NCBI GenBank assembly: GCA_036271395.1
Contig: DATBAS010000193.1
Coordinates: 117,097 to 181,096 of the forward strand
DNA length: 64,000 bases
DNA from: Kofleriaceae bacterium
GTDB taxonomy: Bacteria; Myxococcota_A; Polyangia; Haliangiales; Haliangiaceae
Direction: 5' to 3'
This document shows, piece by piece, positions 2,055-42,596 of this stretch. How positions within the stretch are numbered: the first letter of the stretch is position 1; each line of letters opens with the position of its first letter. The notes under the pieces were generated by a model that had not been told where the DNA came from, did not search any database, and saw only the letters and a list, made by a program, of their open reading frames with translations. The translations under genes were made by a program, and so were the position numbers.

Positions 2055-3877
2055 GCCAGCCGCGGCAAGCCGCTCGCGTCGGCGGCGGCTTCATCCTCGA
2101 CCACGACGATCATCGGCACGTCGGCCATCGATCGCAGCATCGCGACGGCGCCGTACGCGCGCGCCTCGAAGATCACGGCGTCGGCGCGCGAGCGATCGTC
2201 GGCCGCGAGGATCGCGCCGCCGGCGAGCGGCAAGCACGCGCTCGCGATCGTGCCGAGCGGGCCCGAGCCGACGACGACGCACGGGCCGAGCAAGCTGATC
2301 GCGCCCGCGGTGCCGACGAGCGCGCCGGTCTGCGGCGGCAGCTCGTCGAGCACGCGCAGCACGGCGGGCACGAGCCGCACCCGCGACTCGCGATAGCTCG
2401 CGATGCCGCTCGCCGCGAGCCGACCGCGGCCGAGCGCTTCATCCCAGCGCCGGCCGAGCACCCGCGCGACGTCGACGGGCGCCGCGCCCGGATCGCCGGC
2501 GAGGTGCGCGCCGTAGAGCAACGCGAGCGCGGGCAACAGTTGCGGTGGCAGCTCGAACCGCGCGAGCACCTGCTCGCCGAGCGGCATCGCCGGCGGCTCG
2601 GGTAGCGCGATGCCGGCGGCGATCGCGCGGGTCCACGCGTGAAGCTCGTCGCGCCACGACGGTCGCGCGTCGAGCCAATCGAGCGCAGCGGCGGAGCGCG
2701 TGACCGGCAGCGCACGTACGCGCTCGCGCCACGCCGCGACCTTGTCGGACAGCGAGGCGGAGATCGGCGGCTGCACCGGCGGCGGCGCGGTCGCCGGGGT
2801 CGCGAGCTGCGGCCCCGGCAGCTTCGCCACGCGATGCAGCGACGGCTTGCGTCGCGGATCGGGGCCGAGCACGGGCGCCGATTTCGGCGGCTCCGGCGCC
2901 GCGGCCGGCTCGGCTTCCGCGAGCGTCGACGGTTTGGCAGGCTCGTCGACCACGGCCGGGGCCGGCGCCGGCATCGCCACGGCGTCGCCCTGCCCTTCGA
3001 GCACGACGATCGCGACCGGTCGCTTGGCCTGCGCGGCGAGCACGGCGAGCATACGGCCGACGACGAGCCCGGAGCCGTCGGCGCGATCGATGCTGTGGGC
3101 GGCGATCGTGCGCATCGGTTGGCGACCGTCGAGATCGATCGCGTAGAGCTTGCGTGAATCGGCGCCGAGGCACACGACGATGTCGCTCTTGGGGTGCGCG
3201 GCGACGTGCGCGATCGGCTCGGGCAGCTCGTGCGACTTCGGTTGGCCGCGGTTGACGAACGTGACGACATCGAGCCGGGTCGGATCGGCTTGCGTCGTCA
3301 TCCAGACGACGCGCTCGCTGCCGCCGACGGCGGTGATCGTCGAGGCGCGGCCGAGCTTGATCCGGCGTTTCGGCATGCGCGCGTGCGGATCCCACTCCTC
3401 GATCGCACCGCCGCCGGGCAACGCGACGACGAACTGCGCACCCGCCGCGCCGGCCGCGACCGGCACCGCACGCGCCGGAAATTGATACGGCGTCAGATGG
3501 CTCTCGCCGGCGGCGATCACCGCCGACGCGGTCGCGCCGATCGCGAGCCCGTACGAGCCGACGCTCGCGACGAGCTTCATCGGCGCTTCGAGCCGGATCT
3601 CGGCGAGCGTGCGCGGGCCGGCCGGATCGACGAGGTGCACGGTCGAGTGCGCCGCATAGCGCGACAGCACCGCGAGCCGCGCGCCGAGCCACACGACATC
3701 GTGCGCGCCGGCTTCGGCATCGATGCCGAGCTCGGCGCGCTCGCTGCACGCCGGCAAATCGATCACGACGACGCGGCTCGGCTCGATGATCGCGGCCATC
3801 GCGCCATCGTGCGCGACGGCGATACGCGAGCGCTCGCCGGGCACGAATGCAGACGACGCCGCCGAGCGCGCTACCAC
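2051..3877 (-). CDS. Hypothetical protein: beta-propeller-like N-terminal half, Pro/Ala-rich linker, helical C-terminal half
   Basis: 608-aa ORF with a GTG start, 12 nt downstream of the preceding minus-strand gene. CTAG overlap with the convergent gene at 2051-2054. No catalytic motif recognised. Confidence 0.6.
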   Translation of the reverse strand: MVARSAASSAFVPGERSRIAVAHDGAMAAIIEPSRVVVIDLPACSERAELGIDAEAGAHDVVWLGARLAVLSRYAAHSTVHLVDPAGPRTLAEIRLEAPMKLVASVGSYGLAIGATASAVIAAGESHLTPYQFPARAVPVAAGAAGAQFVVALPGGGAIEEWDPHARMPKRRIKLGRASTITAVGGSERVVWMTTQADPTRLDVVTFVNRGQPKSHELPEPIAHVAAHPKSDIVVCLGADSRKLYAIDLDGRQPMRTIAAHSIDRADGSGLVVGRMLAVLAAQAKRPVAIVVLEGQGDAVAMPAPAPAVVDEPAKPSTLAEAEPAAAPEPPKSAPVLGPDPRRKPSLHRVAKLPGPQLATPATAPPPVQPPISASLSDKVAAWRERVRALPVTRSAAALDWLDARPSWRDELHAWTRAIAAGIALPEPPAMPLGEQVLARFELPPQLLPALALLYGAHLAGDPGAAPVDVARVLGRRWDEALGRGRLAASGIASYRESRVRLVPAVLRVLDELPPQTGALVGTAGAISLLGPCVVVGSGPLGTIASACLPLAGGAILAADDRSRADAVIFEARAYGAVAMLRSMADVPMIVVVEDEAAADASGLPRLA

Positions 3878-3889
3878 GGCAAAATTCTA

Positions 3890-4222
3890 TCACCGCGCGA
3901 GCAGGCACGCGCGATCGGGCTTGCCGAGGGGCGGTAGGTCATCCTTGGCCTCGTCGCCGAGCACCGCGCAGACCGCGCCCGAGCCACAATCGCCATCGGT
4001 GTCGCACGACTGCGTGCACCGGCCGTGCGGCGTGCGGATTTGCGCGCTGCCCTCGGCCGCGTGGTGGATGCAGTAGAACGATCGACAGCCGAGCGAGTGC
4101 TCGCACTCGCCGCCGTAGCGCGACTGCCCCCACACGTTCCACGCGACGAGCGCGCCGCCGCCGAGCATGCCGATCGCGATCAGCGCGGTGCCGAGCTTGC
4201 TGAAGAATCCACGTACCGACAT
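3890..4222 (-). CDS. Small membrane-anchored cysteine-rich protein (110 aa)
   Basis: ATG at 4220-4222 overlaps the TGA of the upstream lipoprotein gene (ATGA). One N-terminal TM helix (LGTALIAIGMLGGGALVAW) is followed by 8 Cys in about 70 aa (CEHSLGCRSFYC...CTQSCDTDGDCGSGAVC...C). Confidence 0.6.
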   Translation of the reverse strand: MSVRGFFSKLGTALIAIGMLGGGALVAWNVWGQSRYGGECEHSLGCRSFYCIHHAAEGSAQIRTPHGRCTQSCDTDGDCGSGAVCAVLGDEAKDDLPPLGKPDRACLLAR

Positions 4223-5073
4223 CAGCAACCTCCGGCTTTCCGCGGCGGGCCCTGGATCTGCGCGTGGCGGCCCTCGGCGTCGTAGCGCCACGTCTCGATG
4301 ATCGGCTCGTCACACTCGGCGCCGACGACTTGCGACAGCGTGTCGCCGCCGCTGCCGTCGCGCACGATCACCGCGTGGCCGAGCAAGCTCTGCGTCCACG
4401 GGATGTACGCGAGCGCGCTGCCGCAACGCACCGGCGCGAAGCTGTACCAATCGACATCGCCGTCGTCGACGAGAAACACGTCGCCGGGCAATACCGAGCA
4501 AGCGGCCGGCCGCTGCGCGATCTGCCGAGCGAGCTCGTCGCGGCCACCGCCGTGCGCGTGCACCGCATCGACGTCGGCCCGGCTCCACGCCGCGACCGCG
4601 CCGCCGCGATCGACCACGGTGACGTGACGCGGCGCGACCGGCGGCTGCGCGTTCGGAGCGATCTCGACCGCGCTCGCGCGCAAATCCGCGATCACCGGGC
4701 TTGCCGCGGCGACCTGCTCGGCGGCCGGCTTGGTGCCGAACGCGCCGATCACGACGGCGATGCCGTGCGTCGCGGTCAGCCCGAGCTCGTCGGTGTGCAC
4801 GACGAACGGTAGGCCGAGGCCGAGCTTGCCGTCGAGCGCGGCGCGGATCGCTCGCGCCGATCGCTCGTCGGGCGCGAGGTACGCGGCGATCGCGCGCGGC
4901 GGCGTGCAGTCAGCGCACGTCACGTACGGCATCCAATAAATGCCGGCGGTGCGTTCGGGCGGCGTGCCCGACGGCGACGGTTCCTGCGCCGGTGGCGGCT
5001 GTAGCGTCGGCGCGACCGGCGCGGCTGCGCCGCCGCACGCGGCGAGCATCCACACGAGCGCGGCTTTCGGCAC
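4222..5073 (-). CDS. Lipoprotein, unknown function
   Basis: GTG start. Signal peptide plus lipobox (KAALVWMLAAC|GG), then a Pro-rich linker. Located 18 nt downstream of the 77-aa gene. Confidence 0.7.
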   Translation of the reverse strand: MPKAALVWMLAACGGAAAPVAPTLQPPPAQEPSPSGTPPERTAGIYWMPYVTCADCTPPRAIAAYLAPDERSARAIRAALDGKLGLGLPFVVHTDELGLTATHGIAVVIGAFGTKPAAEQVAAASPVIADLRASAVEIAPNAQPPVAPRHVTVVDRGGAVAAWSRADVDAVHAHGGGRDELARQIAQRPAACSVLPGDVFLVDDGDVDWYSFAPVRCGSALAYIPWTQSLLGHAVIVRDGSGGDTLSQVVGAECDEPIIETWRYDAEGRHAQIQGPPRKAGGC

Positions 5074-5091: not shown

Positions 5092-5325
5092 CTACTTCGT
5101 GTTCGACCAGCCGCAGAGGTTGCCGATCGCCTGGACGACGCGGTGCTTGACGCCCGGCGTTTCGCTCGCGTCGGGAATCTCGTGCGCCTTCATCCAGTCG
5201 AACTGCGTGCGCGCCGTTTTCGGATCCGGCGTCTGGCACATCTCTTTGTATTGCGCGCCGCGCGAGCCGGGGCCGCCCGAGGTGACGCCGCCGAGGACGG
5301 TCGAGAGCTGAGTGATGGTCGTCAT
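5092..5325 (-). CDS. Small exported peptide/protein with double-glycine-type leader (77 aa)
   Basis: MTTITQLSTVLGG|V... The leader is paralogous to that of the upstream gene. Two Cys in the mature part. 9-nt gap to the upstream gene. Confidence 0.6.
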   Translation of the reverse strand: MTTITQLSTVLGGVTSGGPGSRGAQYKEMCQTPDPKTARTQFDWMKAHEIPDASETPGVKHRVVQAIGNLCGWSNTK

Positions 5326-5334
5326 GACGAGCTC

Positions 5335-5652
5335 CTAGTACGCGAGGTGGACGTGGTCGAAGTGGCCGGGGACCGAGTGCGCCTGCTTGCCGCGCAGCGA
5401 GTGATAGTTCTGATAGATCAGCTCGGTGGGCTGCGTGCCCTTCGCCCACTGAAAGTACTTCTCGCGCATCGCCGGCGAGCCATGGACATCGATCGCACGA
5501 CCGAGCCAGTGGAACGACGTCGGATAGTGCGGGCCTTCGATCGAGTGCGAGATGTTGCCTCCCATGTCGACGGCCTTTTGCCAGGCTCCGAACATTTTTT
5601 CGTTCATGCCGCCGGTGATCGTCGCGAGTTGATCGAGATCGATGGTCTGCAT
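5335..5652 (-). CDS. Double-glycine-leader protein with minimal LAS/M15-type zinc peptidase (peptidoglycan peptidase-like) domain (105 aa)
   Basis: MQTIDLDQLATITGG|M... leader. SFHWLGRAID matches the SxHxxGxAxD motif of VanY/M15 D-Ala-D-Ala peptidases. C-terminal HFDHVH supplies an HxH motif. Third codon positions are visibly more A/T-rich than in the neighbours. Confidence 0.7.
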   Translation of the reverse strand: MQTIDLDQLATITGGMNEKMFGAWQKAVDMGGNISHSIEGPHYPTSFHWLGRAIDVHGSPAMREKYFQWAKGTQPTELIYQNYHSLRGKQAHSVPGHFDHVHLAY

Positions 5653-5688
5653 GTTCGACGAACGCTGCAGTCGCGATGCCGAGGATAT

Positions 5689-6807
5689 ATGTCGACCACG
5701 GGAGACGAAGCGCGCGCGTTCGATCGAGCGTTCGCGGAGCTACGGCCTCGGGACCCGGCTGCACGAGTAGCCGGCGCTGGACAGCGGACGCGTCACGCAG
5801 CGCGCTACGATGCACGCGTGATCGATCGCTCCGAGCGTTACCGCGCCATCTCGGCGCTGCGCCCGCCGCTCGACGATGTCGCGCTCGCCGAGCTCGCCGA
5901 TGCGCTCGAAGATCACGAGCTGATCATGGTCGGCACCCCGGGCTGGGAAGAGGATCGCGACAGCATCGGCTGGGCCGCGCGGCGCGTGCTCGAGACCGCC
6001 GGACCGCGCGTCGAGCGCTTCGTCGCACCGAAGCTCGCGAGCGCCGACCGCGCGGTGATCGAGCACGCGCTCGCGATCCTCGCAAAGCGCCCGGTGCTCG
6101 AGCCGGCGACGATCGACGCGATGCTGCATCACGCGGCCGATCCGAAGCTCGCGTATCACGTCGGCACCGCGCTGCGCGGCAAGCTCGACGCGCGCGCGTT
6201 GCTCGACTATCCGGAGACGCGGCTCGCCGGTTTTCTCGCGACGCCCGATCTCGAGCCGGCGTGGCTGCTCCAGTTGCTCGGCGATGCCGCGCTGCGCTCG
6301 CGCGTGCTCGGGCGCATCGCCGAGCTCGCGCCGCCGCCGCACGAGCTGGCACCCGCGCTCGTGCCGTTGCTCGCCGACGCTGCCGTGCGTTATCACGCGA
6401 TCGGCGCGCTGGCGCGGCTGCGCCCGGACGACGCGTCGATCACCGCGGCGCTGGTCGATGCCAGTGCGGTCGAGCATCACGACACGTCGTTCGCGCTCGC
6501 GCAGCGGCCGGTCGCGCACCTACGGTCGCACGTCCCCGCGCTACTCGCGCAGCTGCACAGTGGCCGCACCGGCATCGCGCGTGTGCTCGGCACGCTCGGC
6601 GACACCGCGCCGCCCGAGGTCGCGCTCGCGCTCGGCCACGAGCTCGCCGCCGGCCGCCCGTACGTCGTGCTCGTCGACGCGCTCGACGCGCTCGGCGCCG
6701 CGGCCCTACCCGCGTTACCCGCGGTGCTCGCGGCGGCGCACGATCTCGACGATGAATCCGCGCGCGAAGCCGCTGCGCAGCTCGCGGTGAAGCTGCGCCG
6801 TCACTGA
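5689..6807 (+). CDS. HEAT/armadillo-like helical repeat protein
   Basis: ATG at 5689 inside the longer track ORF 5083-6807; the upstream part is a shadow of the minus-strand genes. Repetitive LxxLLxD.AVRxxAxxAL-type helices. Overlaps the convergent gene by 7 nt. Confidence 0.6.
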   Translation: MSTTGDEARAFDRAFAELRPRDPAARVAGAGQRTRHAARYDARVIDRSERYRAISALRPPLDDVALAELADALEDHELIMVGTPGWEEDRDSIGWAARRVLETAGPRVERFVAPKLASADRAVIEHALAILAKRPVLEPATIDAMLHHAADPKLAYHVGTALRGKLDARALLDYPETRLAGFLATPDLEPAWLLQLLGDAALRSRVLGRIAELAPPPHELAPALVPLLADAAVRYHAIGALARLRPDDASITAALVDASAVEHHDTSFALAQRPVAHLRSHVPALLAQLHSGRTGIARVLGTLGDTAPPEVALALGHELAAGRPYVVLVDALDALGAAALPALPAVLAAAHDLDDESAREAAAQLAVKLRRH

Positions 6808-20121: not shown

Positions 20122-20163
20122 CGCGGTTCGCGCCTGCGCGCGAGGTCGGAGTAGAATGAGACG

Positions 20164-22259
<2,096 letters not shown>

Positions 22260-22263
<4 letters not shown>

Positions 22264-39437: not shown

Positions 39438-39994
39438 GCGGCTACGCGATCGGCGCGTGCTGGGCGGTGTTCGCGTCGTACTGGCTCGTCAGTGCGCTGC
39501 GCGTGAAAGCGGTGAGCCAGCGCGAGAGCTTCGCCCGCACGCTGACGCACCGCTCGCTGTTGGCTCTCGGCTATGCGTTGCTCGTCGAGCGCTGGCTGCC
39601 GGCGCCGTTCGATCTGCGCTGGTTGCCGGACCTCACCGCGGTTCGCATCGCCGGCGATGTCGTCTGCGCGGTCGGTCTGGTGATCGCGATCGCCGCGCGG
39701 CGCGCACTCGCCGGCAACTGGAGCAGCGCGGTCACGCTCAAACAGGACCACGAGCTGATCCGCGCCGGCGCGTATCGCTTCGTGCGCCACCCGATCTACA
39801 CCGGCATGTTGACGATGTTCCTCGGCAGCGCGATCGAAGATGGCCAGCTCCGCGGCGCGCTCGCGTTCGCGCTGACGCTCGTCGCGTTCCTGATCAAGTC
39901 GCGGCGCGAGGAGCTGCTGCTCGCGCAGCACTTCCCCGACGAGTATCCGGCGTACAAGCGCGACGTCAAGGCGCTGATCCCGTTCGTGCTCTAG
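39434..39994 (+). CDS. Isoprenylcysteine carboxyl methyltransferase (ICMT/PEMT-like) family membrane protein
   Basis: ATG at 39434. TM helices. LIRAGAYRFVRHPIYTG...EE..L...F...Y..Y signature. Confidence 0.8.
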   Translation: MSGYAIGACWAVFASYWLVSALRVKAVSQRESFARTLTHRSLLALGYALLVERWLPAPFDLRWLPDLTAVRIAGDVVCAVGLVIAIAARRALAGNWSSAVTLKQDHELIRAGAYRFVRHPIYTGMLTMFLGSAIEDGQLRGALAFALTLVAFLIKSRREELLLAQHFPDEYPAYKRDVKALIPFVL

Positions 39995-42477
39995 CGGATC
40001 TCGAGCGCGAGGCCGAGCACCTCGTCGCCGGGCGTGATCGTCGCGCGCGTCGTGCCGGCCGCGTCGCCCTTGGTGGCGATCACGTCGACGTCACCGGTCG
40101 GCGCGTCGTGGATGCGGAACTCGCCTTGCGCGTCGGCATCGCCGGCGACCTCGCCGGCGGTCGAGCGGATCACGACGTGTGCGCCGGCGACGCGCTGGCC
40201 GCGGCCGTCGCGCACGGTGCCGCCGATCAGCGCACCGCGCGTCAGCTCGATGCGGACATCGCGGATCGACGTGCCGCCCGGCGATGTCGCGGCCGGCACG
40301 TCGAAGTCGCGCGCCAGCGCCATGTAGCCCGGCTGCGCGATCGTCAGCCGCCAGTGCCCGACGAGGACCGGGCCGAGCTTCCAGCGGCCGGTGCTCGCCG
40401 TCGACGTCTCGGTCGTCGCACCGCCGGGCCCCGATGCCGATAGCGACGTGCTCGCGAGCGGATCGCCGGTGCGCGCGTCGAGCAACACGCCTTCGATCGC
40501 GCCGCCGAGCGCGACCACGAGCCGCGCGCGCTCGCCGGTGGTCGACGCGGCCGCATCGAGCTCTTGCGTCGGATACGCGGGATGGTCGACGCGCACGCGG
40601 ACGTGACCGCGCGGCAGCATCTCGATCGCGAACACGCCATCGCTCGAGCTGGTCGCGCCGCGGCCTTCGCTCGGGCCCGCGACGATCTCGAGGTGCGCGC
40701 CGCCGACCGGGATGCCGGTCGAATCGACGAGCGTGCCGAGCAGCGTCGCATCGGCGACCTCGAGCACGACGTCCTCGCGATGCTCGGCCGCGGTCGTGCC
40801 GTCGGCGAGCGCGAGCTCGAGCGCGAGGCGCGCTTCGCCGTGACCGTACGCGGAGACGCGCAGCACCAGCTTGCCGCTGAGTGGACCGATCCGATACTGG
40901 CCGTCGGAGTCGGTGAAGTTTTCGACCGGCGCGCCGACCTCCGGTTGCGCCGAGACTTCGGCGCCGGCGACCGGCGCGCCGCTTTGATCGGTGACGCGGC
41001 CCGCGACGTAGGTGCCCGCGCCGAGCACGACGTCGACGTCGGAGATGACGTCGTTGGCGGCGAGCGTGACCTCGCGCGAACGACCTTCGGCGAACTCCGC
41101 GGCGATCGCGAGCGCGGTGACCTTGCCCTTCGCGATGCCCGTGATCCGATACCGGCCGTCGCTGCCGGTCGTCCAGATCGAAGCGCGCACGCCGTTGCCG
41201 CTGGATGCGAGCGGCGCCGGCTCGCCGACGAGCCCGATCGCTTTCGGATCGACGACCGCGGCCGGCCGCGCGACCTGCTCGCCGGGCAACGGCAACGGTG
41301 GGATCGGGCCGACCATGACGCCGAGCTCGCCGCGCGCGATCAGCTGCGGATCGGCCGACATCGGAGTCGACGTCGTGCTCGGCGCCGGCGCGCCGCTGCG
41401 CCCGGAGAATCGCCGCAGCCGATCCTGATCGACGTCGGCCGAGTATTCGGTCGGGCTCGCGCCCGCGGTCAGCGCACGCACCGATGCGCCCGCGATCGGC
41501 TTGCCGCTCGGGTCGACGACGCGGCCTTCGATCGCGGCGCCGCGTTCGAGCGCGAGCTCGGGTACGCCCTTGCCGGCCTCGAGCTCGACGCCGCCGGGCG
41601 AGATGTACCCCGGCGCGAACGCGTCGGCGATCCACGTGCCGTTCGGCACGCCTTCGATGCGAAACACGCCGTCGTCCCCGCTGCGCGCGTAGCGCGGCGC
41701 CTGATCGTCGCCTTGCGGGCGCAGCTCGATCGCGGCGACGAGCGCGGTGCCTTCGCTGCGATCGATCACGCGGCCGACCACGATCGCGCCGGCTTCGAGT
41801 CGCAGCTCGACCGGCGCGAACGGCCCGGCGCCGAGCCGGCTCACCCGCACGGCGCGCGCGGCGAGCGCTTGTTGCCACGCGTAGACTTGATAGCGGCCCT
41901 CGGGCAAATCGGGCACGTGAAACGCGCCGCGCGGATCGGCGACGACCTCGAGCCCGCCGCCGATCGCGTCGCCGCGAATCCCGACCGTCGCGCCGGCGAC
42001 CGGCTTGCCGCCGTCGGTGACCGTGCCGTCGATCGAGATCTGGCGCGCGACGACGATGCGCGCCTCGTCGGAGGGCACGGGTACGAAGCGCACCTCGGCG
42101 GCGAGCAATCCGGCGCCGGTGACATGCACGCGGTACCGGCCCGGTGCGAGGCCATCGATGATGAAGTGACCGTCGTTGCCGGTCGGTGGGATCGCGCTCG
42201 TCGCGACCGCACTTCCGCTGCCGCTGCCCATCGCTTCGAGCTCGGCCGAGACGCTCGCGCCCGCGACCGGCAGGCCGGCACCATCGACGACAAAGCCGGT
42301 CAGCCGCGGCCCACTCGCCGTGCCCGGCAAGTGCGGCGGCGCCGGTGTCGTCGTGAAGCCGTGCCCGCTGCCGCGCGACGCGTCCGTCGCCGGCGTGGGC
42401 GCGTGCCTGCCGACGACGAGCCCGATCGTCGCCGCGAGGACGACGATCACGCCGAGCGCGACGAGCGGGTTGCGCAT
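39991..42477 (-). CDS. Membrane-anchored protein with multiple carboxypeptidase-regulatory-like (CarboxypepD_reg) domains
   Basis: N-terminal TM anchor. At least 8 repeats of the G.V.D..G.P.AGA.V pattern (GRVVDPSGKPIAGASVRA, GRVTDQSGAPVAGAEVSA, GTVRDGRGQRVAGAHVVI ...). Confidence 0.8.
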   Translation of the reverse strand: MRNPLVALGVIVVLAATIGLVVGRHAPTPATDASRGSGHGFTTTPAPPHLPGTASGPRLTGFVVDGAGLPVAGASVSAELEAMGSGSGSAVATSAIPPTGNDGHFIIDGLAPGRYRVHVTGAGLLAAEVRFVPVPSDEARIVVARQISIDGTVTDGGKPVAGATVGIRGDAIGGGLEVVADPRGAFHVPDLPEGRYQVYAWQQALAARAVRVSRLGAGPFAPVELRLEAGAIVVGRVIDRSEGTALVAAIELRPQGDDQAPRYARSGDDGVFRIEGVPNGTWIADAFAPGYISPGGVELEAGKGVPELALERGAAIEGRVVDPSGKPIAGASVRALTAGASPTEYSADVDQDRLRRFSGRSGAPAPSTTSTPMSADPQLIARGELGVMVGPIPPLPLPGEQVARPAAVVDPKAIGLVGEPAPLASSGNGVRASIWTTGSDGRYRITGIAKGKVTALAIAAEFAEGRSREVTLAANDVISDVDVVLGAGTYVAGRVTDQSGAPVAGAEVSAQPEVGAPVENFTDSDGQYRIGPLSGKLVLRVSAYGHGEARLALELALADGTTAAEHREDVVLEVADATLLGTLVDSTGIPVGGAHLEIVAGPSEGRGATSSSDGVFAIEMLPRGHVRVRVDHPAYPTQELDAAASTTGERARLVVALGGAIEGVLLDARTGDPLASTSLSASGPGGATTETSTASTGRWKLGPVLVGHWRLTIAQPGYMALARDFDVPAATSPGGTSIRDVRIELTRGALIGGTVRDGRGQRVAGAHVVIRSTAGEVAGDADAQGEFRIHDAPTGDVDVIATKGDAAGTTRATITPGDEVLGLALEIR

Positions 42478-42596
42478 CGGCGGTGACTGTAGCGCGTGGG
42501 CGATACCATCTGACTATCGGAGGCGACGGCGCTCGCATGCAAACAGCCGAATGCGCGGCGCGCTCGGCTGGCACGCAGGCTGCTCGTGTGGCCGGC

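Follow-up and report, generated by a model that had tools for sequence, protein, structure and literature searches.

In the 64-kb window studied here (the whole stretch of Kofleriaceae DNA that was analysed), the initial annotation had read one short gene as a double-glycine (GG) leader joined to a minimal zinc peptidase. Such a fusion raises a question: could a Gram-negative bacterium export a wall-cutting enzyme in the manner of a microcin? We addressed it by asking whether the gene is real, whether its leader and its catalytic motifs are conserved, what its mature domain resembles, and which mode of action its relatives and its neighbors favor.

A conserved pair of genes with double-glycine leaders

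The gene at 5335..5652 (-) is genuine and conserved. Its translation, which exactly reproduces the one claimed earlier, reads MQTIDLDQLATITGG and then MNEKMF...SFHWLGRAID...GHFDHVHLAY, and the GC content at third codon positions in this frame (GC3, 0.84) is of the coding type. Close homologues fall into 18 clusters with 66–89% identity; each is 105 aa long except for one that was called at 112 aa, and the few that carry source names come from Kofleriaceae. Throughout the alignment of these clusters, the GG pair and all of the putative catalytic residues are unchanged.

The low GC content of the gene had been taken as a sign of acquisition. The dip itself is real (0.607, vs. 0.696 for the window), but it is seen again in all ten homologous loci, where GC3 is host-like (0.79–0.97) and the low GC is confined to codon positions 1 and 2. 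Because it recurs in this way, we attribute the dip to amino-acid composition and reject horizontal acquisition as its cause. The spacer upstream of the gene contained no match to a sigma-70 consensus, and a promoter and terminator scan around the gene pair detected nothing; the assignment of this spacer as a promoter region is therefore presumed. An ORF at 5740..6519 (-) was considered as an upstream member of the operon and rejected as the probable antisense shadow of a plus-strand gene.

A second gene starts 9 nt past the peptidase stop codon and is preceded by a GGAG motif. Homologues of this partner form 23 clusters in which two cysteines are invariant (alignment), and across loci it recurs as a gene of 68–81 aa with a GG leader, placed about 10 nt downstream of the peptidase gene. 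It adjoins the peptidase gene in 8/8 Kofleriaceae loci and in the distant pairs L009, L010, L011, L016 and L018; indeed, the pairing is kept, down to about 35% identity, in all of the standalone GG-form loci that were read except P0024 and P0037. With an obligate, leader-bearing partner downstream, the enzyme does not stand alone but is one half of a two-protein module. Searches of Pfam and NCBIfam, and of the PDB with a partner profile (nothing at E ≤ 10), detected no homologue of known function. The mature partner is probably disulfide-bonded, and its invariant cysteine pair fits an oxidizing, extracytoplasmic destination. The idea that it is a generic immunity protein for the LAS domain is unsupported, as nothing like it follows the eCIS_core-LAS fusion genes in L014 and L015.

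To examine the leaders, we compared 57 sequences, which came from the LAS gene, from genes distantly related to it, and from the partner gene. Glycine occupies positions -1 and -2 in 57/57, as does Leu or Met at -7; Val or Ile is found at -4 in 51/57, and a hydrophobic Leu, Ile or Met at -12 in 52/57. This pattern far exceeds a chance motif, and it is common to two mature proteins, peptidase and partner, that are unrelated to each other. The earlier reading of the first 15 residues as a GG leader is thus upheld: they have what is expected of such a leader, namely a length of about 15–25 aa with hydrophobic residues at -4, -7 and -12. In the peptidase, the leader is the sole fast-evolving part, and it nonetheless retains the pattern recognized by peptidase-C39 ABC exporters (PCATs). 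Profile start positions place a domain boundary near the GG in the multidomain relatives. The -4, -7 and -12 positions of such leaders insert into the groove of the PCAT peptidase (PMC6959990), and the signal of MccV, MRTLTLNELDSVSGG, equals the 15-residue peptidase leader in length and pattern (PMC12219008). Since the peptidase N-terminus has neither a hydrophobic core nor a basic n-region, it is neither a Sec nor a Tat signal. A search with curated bacteriocin-type signal HMMs (NCBIfam, E ≤ 10), which had been proposed as a check, returned nothing for either protein; the JGI label “bacteriocin-like protein” is attached to two homologues, one of the peptidase and one of the partner.

Features of the gene pair (positions are those of the window)
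Feature	Position	Strand	Basis
Peptidase gene, 105-aa pre-protein (GG leader + LAS/MT3-like zinc peptidase domain, predicted); stop codon 5335-5337	5335..5652	-	Translation, GC3, homologues
Double-glycine leader, residues 1-15 (MQTIDLDQLATITGG), predicted cleavage after G15	5608..5652	-	Leader profile over 57 sequences
Mature 90-aa LAS-fold domain (modeled), residues 16-105	5338..5607	-	AlphaFold2 model, Foldseek
Motif S46-F-H48-W-L-G51-R-A53-I-D55 (SxHxxGxAxD); H48 and D55 predicted zinc ligands	5488..5517	-	Alignments, Shh, VldE spacing
Motif H97-F-D99-H100-V-H102 (HxDHxH); H102 predicted third zinc ligand, H97 and H100 predicted catalytic histidines	5347..5364	-	Alignments, VldE pattern
Partner gene, 77 aa: 13-aa GG leader (MTTITQLSTVLGG) + 64-aa mature protein, two invariant cysteines	5092..5325	-	Translation, homologues, adjacency
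Spacer, less GC-rich; presumed promoter region of the two-gene operon	5653..5688	.	Lies between peptidase gene and probable divergent + strand gene 5689..6807

Fold, predicted active site and relatives of the mature domain

We assign the AlphaFold2 model of the peptidase (pLDDT 91.6, pTM 0.83) to the Hedgehog/DD-peptidase fold, in which an antiparallel sheet packs on helices. When it was compared to the PDB with Foldseek, the first 29 matches were all LAS proteins (best TMq 0.70–0.71, probability 1.0). The MT3 domain of VldE led (TMq 0.70, probability 1.0), followed by Hedgehog N-domains, 1lbu and LdcB; among viral models (BFVD), phage tape-measure proteins came out on top, with TMq up to 0.75, and M15A proteins were also present. 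The sequence identity to characterized LAS enzymes is just 15–27%. This structural comparison, which had been suggested as a check, bears out the LAS assignment, and the modeled 90-aa domain accordingly has a LAS zinc peptidase fold.

The predicted active site has the LAS zinc-ligand motif, H-x(3-6)-D plus H-x-H, in the form of H48-x6-D55 and H100-V-H102. In an alignment of 36 relatives with 29–50% identity, H42, S46, H48, D55, E77, H97, H100 and H102 (full-length numbering) are unchanged. The S-x-H-x2-G-x-A-x-D motif aligns with SLHYEGRAVD of Shh, and the counterparts in VldE are H301/D308 by spacing and H370-x-D372-H373-x-H375 by pattern (PMC11667670). Taken with the model, these motifs suggest that the domain binds zinc and that it may be lytic.

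Domain databases were less informative. No Pfam or NCBIfam model reached threshold on the peptidase, and Pfam, NCBIfam and PHROGs gave nothing significant for either protein of the pair, with weak HH_signal and DUF6504 matches at most. The hmmscan for Peptidase_M15 that the initial annotation had recommended found no M15 family in Pfam even at E ≤ 10. Among the 36 relatives, Peptidase_M15_3 matched 14 weakly (best E 8e-4) and the best M15_4 match had an E of 8e-3, all below threshold; HH_signal matched 19, all under the Pfam gathering score. Of the earlier assignment to a VanY-type LAS/M15 peptidase, then, the fold and the SxHxxGxAxD and HxH motifs stand, but no Pfam M15/VanY threshold was reached, and the closest kin lie elsewhere: the MT3/VldE type by structure and the Hedgehog N-domain by sequence.

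The best structural match, the MT3 catalytic domain of VldE (Spr1875) from Streptococcus pneumoniae (PDB 9flk/9flj/9flm), is biochemically a peptidoglycan endopeptidase (L,D-endopeptidase) (PMC11667670). It is a similarly minimal LAS domain, of about 110 aa, and shares the layout H-x6-D plus H-x-D-H-x-H. The kinship is distant in sequence: a family profile built from the 36-sequence alignment did not retrieve the VldE chains from the PDB at E ≤ 10, and the Foldseek identity is 15–17%. VldE also has R294 where the peptidase family has the invariant H42, a position at which Hedgehog, like the family, has His. The N-terminal module of VldE binds the cell wall and, to our knowledge, VldE has no GG leader. 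Unlike the peptidase, it is modular, with that N-terminal module separate, and it has no partner gene (PMC11667670). A second likeness is to MT3 of mycobacteriophage tape-measure proteins (TM4 tape-measure motif 3), and relatives of the peptidase do occur within phage tape-measure proteins; structure, HxDHxH loop and tape-measure occurrence all point to an MT3-type domain.

At the sequence level, the Hedgehog N-domain (Pfam HH_signal, clan Peptidase_MD) is closest. The family profile matched Hedgehog N-domains with an E of about 1e-5, aligned across the zinc motif, such that the family pattern G-x-H-x5-S-x-H-Y-x-G-R-A-x-D falls on DGHHSEESLHYEGRAVD of Shh. The two nevertheless differ in size (90 aa, vs. 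about 150 aa for the Hedgehog domain) and at the C-terminus, where the peptidase has HxDHxH and Shh an E177/H183 arrangement; the TM-score is about 0.5. With the Peptidase M15 families (VanX/VanY, Peptidase_M15_3/M15_4, the Zn DD-peptidase 1lbu of Streptomyces albus, and LdcB), the peptidase shares SxHxxGxAxD, and Foldseek superposed 1lbu on the model with an rmsd of 2.0 Å over 62 columns at 27% identity. Its third-ligand motif is, in contrast, a LAS/M23-like HxH with Asp or Glu three residues before, whereas classical M15 enzymes have an ExxH context.

The standalone, leader-tagged family comprises about 339 sequence clusters, a few of which carry source names, and these are from Kofleriaceae or Myxococcales; neither Pfam nor NCBIfam has a model for it, which leaves a clear gap in annotation. 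In some relatives, the domain is fused to PG_binding_1 with eCIS_core present or absent; P0032 and P0040, which contain both eCIS_core and PG_binding_1, carry it as their C-terminal module. In P0045, P0050, P0057, P0059 and P0082, which match tape-measure PHROGs, it is embedded in phage tape-measure proteins. Both the PG_binding_1 fusions and the tape-measure embedding point to peptidoglycan as the substrate. The initial annotation had missed the partner gene, the standalone family, and the occurrence of the domain within eCIS_core, peptidoglycan-binding and tape-measure proteins.

Proposed export and mode of action

A search of the genome for a C39-ABC exporter had also been proposed. Neither the 64-kb window nor the sequence up to 10 kb from the pair at the other loci that we read contained one, so no cognate PCAT gene lies near its presumed cargo. 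The ABC signature LSGGQ/E (regular expression, six frames) was absent from the window and from loci L001–L008, and no ABC or C39 Pfam family appeared among the called genes of L016–L020 or the scanned ORFs of the window. What Pfam did identify in neighboring ORFs were proteases, OmpA, an AAA+ ATPase and housekeeping genes. Given that no linked exporter was found, the export route is one that we infer.

We consider it about an even proposition that the two genes constitute a microcin-like, type-I-secreted enzymatic bacteriolysin and a co-secreted accessory protein. The two-gene operon would yield two small proteins with a GG leader on each: a protein of 105 aa in which the 15-residue leader precedes a 90-residue, single-domain, MT3/VldE-like LAS zinc metallopeptidase (predicted zinc ligands H48, D55 and H102; predicted catalytic residues H97 and H100), and one of 77 aa in which a 13-residue leader precedes a 64-residue, probably disulfide-bonded domain. 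An unlinked PCAT, acting with a membrane-fusion protein and an outer-membrane channel, would recognize the leaders via the hydrophobic residues at -4, -7 and -12, cut after the GG, and export both proteins to the outside in one step. The enzyme would fold and bind zinc outside the cell only and would never meet the producer's periplasmic peptidoglycan, which would explain why there is no classical immunity gene. Once outside, it would attack the peptidoglycan of bacterial prey or competitors by cleaving bonds of the stem peptides. As the accessory, the partner may be a targeting or wall-binding subunit, an envelope-permeabilizing peptide, or an inhibitor that confers latency. A lone 10-kDa peptidase has no obvious route through the outer membrane of Gram-negative prey, an observation that counts against a bacteriolysin.

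A broader version of this proposal seems to us somewhat less than an even proposition. Soil Myxococcota may possess a large, unannotated family of “enzymatic microcins”: 10-kDa zinc peptidoglycan peptidases that leave the cell by one-step, PCAT-type type I secretion via a 15-residue GG leader, thereby sparing the producer's wall, and that are always co-secreted with a disulfide-bonded partner of 50–65 aa that directs the enzyme to the envelopes of prey or acts as a gate on its activity.

Known systems offer parallels on both the export and the enzymatic side. Like the GG cargos MccV, the bacteroidetocins and the PCAT1 cargo CtA, the peptidase has a 15-aa leader with GG at -1/-2 and hydrophobic residues at -4/-7/-12, and it resembles class II microcins in its mature size of about 10 kDa and its Gram-negative producer. 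At 90 residues, CtA is a precedent for a PCAT substrate of this size (PMC6959990). Known PCAT cargos are, however, peptides or small proteins without enzymatic activity, and their genes usually adjoin those for the PCAT and for immunity; here, the cargo is predicted to be a folded metalloenzyme domain, there is no linked PCAT or immunity gene, and a second GG protein is conserved. We know of no enzyme among established PCAT cargos. In the literature available to us, no peptidoglycan hydrolase is described as having a GG leader, although an ABC transporter may export millericin B.

Class III bacteriocins or bacteriolysins (lysostaphin, enterolysin A and zoocin A) are secreted peptidoglycan peptidases of the LAS superfamily directed against other bacteria, roles that would apply to the present enzyme by analogy. 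They are modular enzymes of 25–35 kDa from Gram-positive bacteria, with an M23 catalytic domain and a targeting domain, whereas the peptidase is a 10-kDa single domain from a diderm. Enterolysin A has a Sec-dependent signal peptide, and the producers of lysostaphin and zoocin A have FemABX-type immunity (PMC8538875). For a two-protein bacteriolysin, the two-component Bac41 provides a precedent (10.1101/2020.11.20.391417).

Alternative readings and implications

If a PCAT operated without an outer-membrane partner, it could deliver the pair to the producer's own periplasm, where the peptidase, held in check by the disulfide-bonded partner as its cognate inhibitor, would remodel the cell's own peptidoglycan for growth, sporulation or gliding. 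We regard this as unlikely. Its attractions are that the nearest structural relative, VldE, is an endogenous, stress-induced remodeling enzyme with a latent state (PMC11667670), that the partner's invariant cysteine pair is compatible with periplasmic oxidation by Dsb, and that the strict 1:1 pairing resembles that of enzyme-inhibitor or toxin-immunity pairs. But neither protein of the pair has a signal for Sec or Tat, the usual routes for periplasmic proteins, and the multidomain relatives (eCIS_core fusions and tape-measure proteins), whose targets are foreign walls, lack a gene resembling the partner. Moreover, we know of no precedent for an immunity protein that bears its toxin's export tag.

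The 64-aa partner might instead be the killer, a membrane-active or receptor-targeting microcin, with the peptidase merely opening the wall locally to grant it access to the membrane. GG leaders on both products and translational coupling, as in class IIb two-peptide systems, would suit such an arrangement, and the mature partner is inside the size range of class II microcins (PMC12219008). The arrangement strikes us as rather improbable, given that the mature partner is polar and charged, that no long hydrophobic or amphipathic stretch is apparent in it, and that no conserved immunity gene for a membrane-active peptide lies beside the pair.

A further possibility is that the LAS protein is not a secreted enzyme at all, serving as a zinc-dependent binding or signaling module, or as a cytoplasmic dipeptidase like VanX, with its GG N-terminus retained. 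The best sequence-level matches are Hedgehog N-domains, for which a role as a zinc-dependent binding or signaling module is debated; VanX-type LAS enzymes are cytoplasmic, and the pair has no linked exporter. We nonetheless hold this reading to be very unlikely: more than 36 diverged sequences preserve the whole catalytic set without exception, the putative general-base histidine included, relatives are joined to peptidoglycan-binding domains and phage tape-measure proteins, and the fast-evolving leader still keeps the PCAT pattern, which is also present on the unrelated partner.

The surroundings of the pair bring contractile injection systems to mind. A 3340-aa eCIS_core protein is encoded about 2 kb from it and an AAA+/WHD ATPase 14.5 kb away; in L005 and L006, the distance to a related ATPase is about 6.5 kb. 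P0032 and P0040, which carry the LAS domain at the C-terminal end, are built in the way reported for eCIS toxins that begin with DUF4157/eCIS_core (Geller et al. 2021, PMC8213781). The peptidase itself, however, has no eCIS_core domain, and in the closest relative, L004, the syntenic site lacks the giant gene that is a near neighbor in the window. A functional tie to that gene is unsupported, as the neighborhood is not conserved. That the peptidase is cargo loaded into, or matured for, an eCIS-like particle, its N-terminal 15 residues being a packaging or processing tag (cut, for example, by the HExxH eCIS_core) instead of a PCAT leader, is thus highly doubtful: Pfam scans of the window turned up no gene for a sheath, tube, baseplate or spike, the pair has unrelated neighbors in six other loci (L001, L002, L007, L008, L016 and L018), and the leader agrees with the PCAT consensus at each position.

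Should the secreted bacteriolysin with its co-secreted partner prove correct, the cargo range of PCAT/type I secretion, until now peptides and small proteins without enzymatic activity, would widen to include a folded metalloenzyme; the “enzymatic microcin,” if true, would be the first known enzyme cargo of a PCAT and a new class of two-component bacteriolysin. It would also explain the release of a wall-cutting enzyme by a Gram-negative producer that has no immunity protein against it. The very small (90 aa) lytic scaffold with its dedicated partner would have potential as an enzybiotic or a secretable cargo, and the Hedgehog/DD-peptidase fold would gain a standalone bacterial branch whose sequence resembles the Hedgehog zinc site more closely than it does classical M15 enzymes. 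One domain would then serve three modes of delivery: phage tape-measure proteins, eCIS_core effectors and GG-leader secretion.

A conserved gene behind a double-glycine leader

Translation of the peptidase ORF gave exactly the 105-aa sequence quoted in the initial annotation. The ORF is the longest in its own frame, and the remaining five frames over it are either full of stops or non-coding in their GC pattern; its GC3 (0.84) is usual for genes of this window, which has 69.6% GC. Homologues were found in 18 protein clusters at 66–89% identity, each of 105 aa save one called at 112 aa. Few of these clusters have source names, all of them Kofleriaceae; from the genome collection we took five Kofleriaceae MAG loci carrying homologues. 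In the alignment of close homologues, residues 1–13 are variable, and G14-G15 and most later residues are invariant, a conservation pattern that indicates a real gene under purifying selection.

The low GC of the gene had been taken to suggest acquisition. The dip is real (0.607 vs. 0.696 for the window), and in all ten loci examined the gene lies 2.5–9 points under its own locus. However, in 10/10 loci the low GC is confined to codon positions 1 (0.58–0.62) and 2 (0.38–0.46), while GC3 is host-like (0.79–0.97). The dip is thus no evidence of recent acquisition; it follows from an abundance of His, Asn, Lys, Tyr, Phe, Met, Ile and Gln in the protein.

The proposed double-glycine (GG) leader was borne out in a set of 57 leaders: 19 from close peptidases, 11 from peptidase relatives below 50% identity (drawn from a search of 1.8 billion representative proteins) and 27 from partner proteins, distant versions included. 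All 57 end in GG and have Leu at -7 (counting one Met); position -4 is Val or Ile in 51 and -12 is hydrophobic (Leu, Ile or Met) in 52, with mostly polar or acidic residues at -8 and -11. Positions -4, -7 and -12 dock into a hydrophobic groove of the peptidase domain of peptidase-C39 ABC exporters (PCATs), and the mutations L(-7)A and L(-12)A weaken cargo binding (PMC6959990). The 15-residue peptidase leader, MQTIDLDQLATITGG, equals the colicin V signal MRTLTLNELDSVSGG in length and pattern (PMC12219008); by analogy, we likened it to class II microcin leaders. Because the N-terminus has neither a basic n-region nor a hydrophobic core, Sec, Tat and lipoprotein signals were excluded. In profile coordinates, the homology of multidomain relatives begins near the position matching GG, so the 15 residues seem to be a module added to the fold, not a part of it.

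A profile of ten leader-tagged forms retrieved 339 clusters at E ≤ 1e-3. Among the 120 listed, most measure 105–130 aa, and the few organism names given are Kofleriaceae or Myxococcales; the loci examined have a GC of 66–73%. The JGI name “bacteriocin-like protein” is given to one homologue each of peptidase and partner; no curated family covers either protein.

The LAS domain and its relatives

The protein was recognized by neither Pfam nor NCBIfam, the one hint there being weak similarity to the Hedgehog N-terminal domain. With a close-homologue profile we found 128 matches in 1.84 billion representative proteins and from these matches built an alignment of 36 sequences at 29–50% identity to the window peptidase. 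Invariant in it are H42, S46, H48, D55, E77, H97, H100 and H102 (full-length numbering). Against the PDB, this broader profile matched Hedgehog N-domains at E = 7e-6 to 1e-5. Two entries align at their C-terminal end over a His-tag, and that portion is to be disregarded; entries aligned on the N-terminal stretch only (e.g., 2wg4_A) still reach E = 1.1e-5. The stretch G-x-H-x5-S-x-H-Y-x-G-R-A-x-D pairs with Shh DGHHSEESLHYEGRAVD. Sub-threshold matches within the 36 members were to HH_signal (19), Peptidase_M15_3 (14; best 8e-4) and Peptidase_M15_4 (2).

An AlphaFold2 model based on the broad alignment had a pLDDT of 91.6 and a pTM of 0.83 (a previous model, from a shallow alignment, had a pLDDT of 78). 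The structural match that the initial annotation called for was found: in a Foldseek search of the PDB, ranks 1–29 were all proteins of the LAS (lysostaphin/D-Ala-D-Ala peptidase/Sonic hedgehog) superfamily. Matches included the C-terminal MT3 domain of pneumococcal VldE (TMq 0.67–0.71, probability 0.98–1.0), Hedgehog N-domains (TMq about 0.5), the Streptomyces albus Zn DD-peptidase 1lbu (27% identity, rmsd 2.0 Å across 62 columns) and, at rank 32, LdcB. Among viral models, tape-measure proteins of Synechococcus, Gordonia and Mycobacterium phages matched best, followed by M15A peptidases.

VldE MT3 is a peptidoglycan L,D-endopeptidase, as shown by experiment, with H301, D308 and H375 as zinc ligands; in its loop H370-x-D372-H373-x-H375, H370 is the proposed general base and H373 an additional conserved active-site histidine (PMC11667670). 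H48-x6-D55 and H97-F-D99-H100-V-H102 of the window peptidase have the same spacing. The earlier zinc-ligand reading was correct as to the LAS superfamily, whose defining features testable by motif and by fold are both present, but no curated M15 threshold was reached. We assign the protein to the LAS fold with high confidence. The description that fits it best is that of a divergent MT3-like LAS domain, in sequence nearest to the Hedgehog zinc site; as a working analogy, it may be likened to VldE MT3 and phage tape-measure lysins.

In P0114, P0092, P0122, P0131, P0125 and P0141 the C-terminal half of the domain precedes the N-terminal half within one protein, profile positions ~72–104 (from 56 in P0122) being placed ahead of ~20–72; this order suggests circular permutants. 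Toxins associated with eCIS have DUF4157/eCIS_core N-terminally and the toxin C-terminally (PMC8213781). Fusions to peptidoglycan-binding modules and phage tail-tip use among relatives argue that the domain would cut peptidoglycan from outside the target cell.

Features of the window, of one distant locus (L016) and of related proteins (P numbers)
Feature	Location	Strand	Remarks
Peptidase gene	5335..5652	-	Translation 105 aa; coding-type GC3; conserved homologues
Partner gene, 77 aa	5092..5325	-	ORF 9 nt past peptidase stop codon, preceded by GGAG
283-aa protein	4222..5073	-	Lipoprotein-type N-terminus (…WMLAAC, lipobox-like); no Pfam match
Leu/Ala-rich repeat gene	5689..6807 (start about 5689)	+	No Pfam match
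Giant eCIS_core ORF, 3340 aa	7754..17776	-	Only Pfam match eCIS_core (DUF4157), mid-protein, aa 1442–1506
AAA+/WHD ATPase, eCIS-associated type	20155..22263	+	
840-aa protein	39991..42513	-	About nine CarboxypepD_reg (prealbumin-like) repeats
Nucleotidyltransferase/HEPN pair (MNT-HEPN toxin-antitoxin type)	L016 8646..9339		Just upstream of distant peptidase-partner pair
LAS domain (~90 aa), P0027	Extreme C-terminus		With PG_binding_1
LAS domain, P0032 and P0040	C-terminus		eCIS_core + PG_binding_1 proteins
LAS domain, 729–2655-aa proteins	Internal		Basis: tape-measure PHROG matches
LAS/MT3-like domain, P0111 (2676 aa)	About residues 1529–1637, 2004–2082, 2519–2593		Three tandem copies

The partner gene and its surroundings

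The initial annotation described an enzyme domain behind a leader; leader and enzyme domain held, but an adjacent GG-leader gene had been missed. The N-terminus of this partner, MTTITQLSTVLGG, is a second GG leader, and its mature part of 64 aa has two cysteines. Across 23 clusters of homologues the leaders are variable, the mature regions strongly conserved and both cysteines invariant; no relatives were found in Pfam, NCBIfam, PHROG or the PDB. Peptidase and partner are adjacent in 8/8 Kofleriaceae loci, among which the flanking genes agree only for the window and its closest relative L004, and for L005 and L006. The arrangement is also kept for peptidase relatives at 33–50% identity (L009, L010, L011, L016, L018), with partners of 68–85 aa that have a GG leader, two Cys and the common motif Q-(F/Y)-D-(W/T)-M...PD...PG(V/F).R..V. 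There were two exceptions: P0024, which is nearer to the multidomain type, is followed by a gene unrelated to the partner, and no partner-like gene follows P0037, but its contig stops ~80 nt downstream. The eCIS_core fusion loci examined lack a partner-like gene, which indicates, from gene content, that the partner is tied to the leader-tagged standalone form rather than to the catalytic domain itself. The tie speaks against a generic immunity protein.

The C39-type ABC exporter expected for the pair was not found near it. The ABC signature LSGGQ/E is absent in any frame from the window and eight related loci, and ABC_tran and Peptidase_C39 are absent from the window ORFs scanned and from called genes within 10 kb in more distant loci. 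The pair thus lacks the adjacent PCAT of bacteriocin loci, and its exporter, if it exists, is unlinked.

Around the pair lie housekeeping genes, joined in L002 and L006 by many secreted-type peptidases. There (L002 1..17000; L006 7383..13766) the pair lies amid M13, M28/M20, M1 and weak M23 genes, an S15 X-Pro dipeptidyl peptidase and two pepsin-like aspartyl proteases; these two unrelated Kofleriaceae contexts may represent a secretome neighbourhood for degradation or predation. In the window, the gene for the 283-aa protein starts 18 nt past the partner stop codon. It occupies the same position only in L004 (83% identity) and may share a transcript with the pair in that lineage. The Leu/Ala-rich repeat gene diverges from the peptidase gene with only about 36 bp between them; an Arg/Glu-rich ORF with a nonsense-like translation (5740..6519, minus strand) is probably its antisense shadow. 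L018 and L019 likewise have proteins similar to the CarboxypepD_reg repeat protein close to the pair.

The giant eCIS_core protein has no recognizable toxin domain and no tblastn match in L004 or the other fetched loci. Sheath, tube and baseplate genes are missing from the window, so its eCIS_core gene and ATPase look like an orphan module. A homologue of the ATPase (39% identity) lies ~6.5 kb upstream of the pair in L005 (1313..3547) and L006 (1318..3555), with no eCIS_core in between by tblastn with the giant protein or, in L006 ORFs, by Pfam. The association of ATPase and pair (window, L005, L006) is recurrent but loose.

A proposed function and its alternatives

The bacteriolysins known so far come from Gram-positive bacteria and are large, with a modular build. 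To our knowledge, no PCAT cargo known so far is an enzyme. In the literature searched, no peptidoglycan hydrolase was described as having a GG leader; millericin B may offer a partial precedent. The fold and the signal are each known, and their combination and the two-gene organization were not found described there. Enterolysin A depends on Sec, and the producers of lysostaphin and zoocin A have FemABX-type immunity (PMC8538875). PCATs are reportedly widespread in Gram-negative bacteria, their only reported function being the export of GG-signal proteins (PMC12219008), and a cargo of 90 residues is on record (PMC6959990).

Our proposal starts from a conserved two-gene operon with two GG-type leaders. 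Read as a periplasmic autolysin with its inhibitor, this operon makes an unlikely case; read as a two-peptide bacteriocin with the partner as killer, a slimmer one. The base further includes a confidently predicted LAS/MT3 fold with an invariant, intact set of zinc and catalytic residues, beside which a non-catalytic or cytoplasmic LAS protein seems improbable, as well as peptidoglycan-related architectures in relatives and the invariant cysteine pair of the partner. Least probable is a contractile injection system cargo, which the adjacent eCIS_core and ATPase genes suggest in the window but against which it counts that linkage of the pair to them is not conserved.

We lean towards GG/PCAT export of the pair. 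An unlinked PCAT-MFP-OMP type I system would recognize both leaders, cleave behind GG and expel peptidase and partner from the cell. With secretion in a single step, an active wall peptidase would be kept away from the producer’s periplasm, which would account for the non-Sec signal and the missing immunity gene. The partner may be an accessory: a targeting or permeabilizing factor, or a latency inhibitor. Taken whole, the proposal is in our judgment evenly balanced: a PCAT-exported wall peptidase that, with its accessory partner, would cleave stem-peptide bonds of prey peptidoglycan outside the cell.
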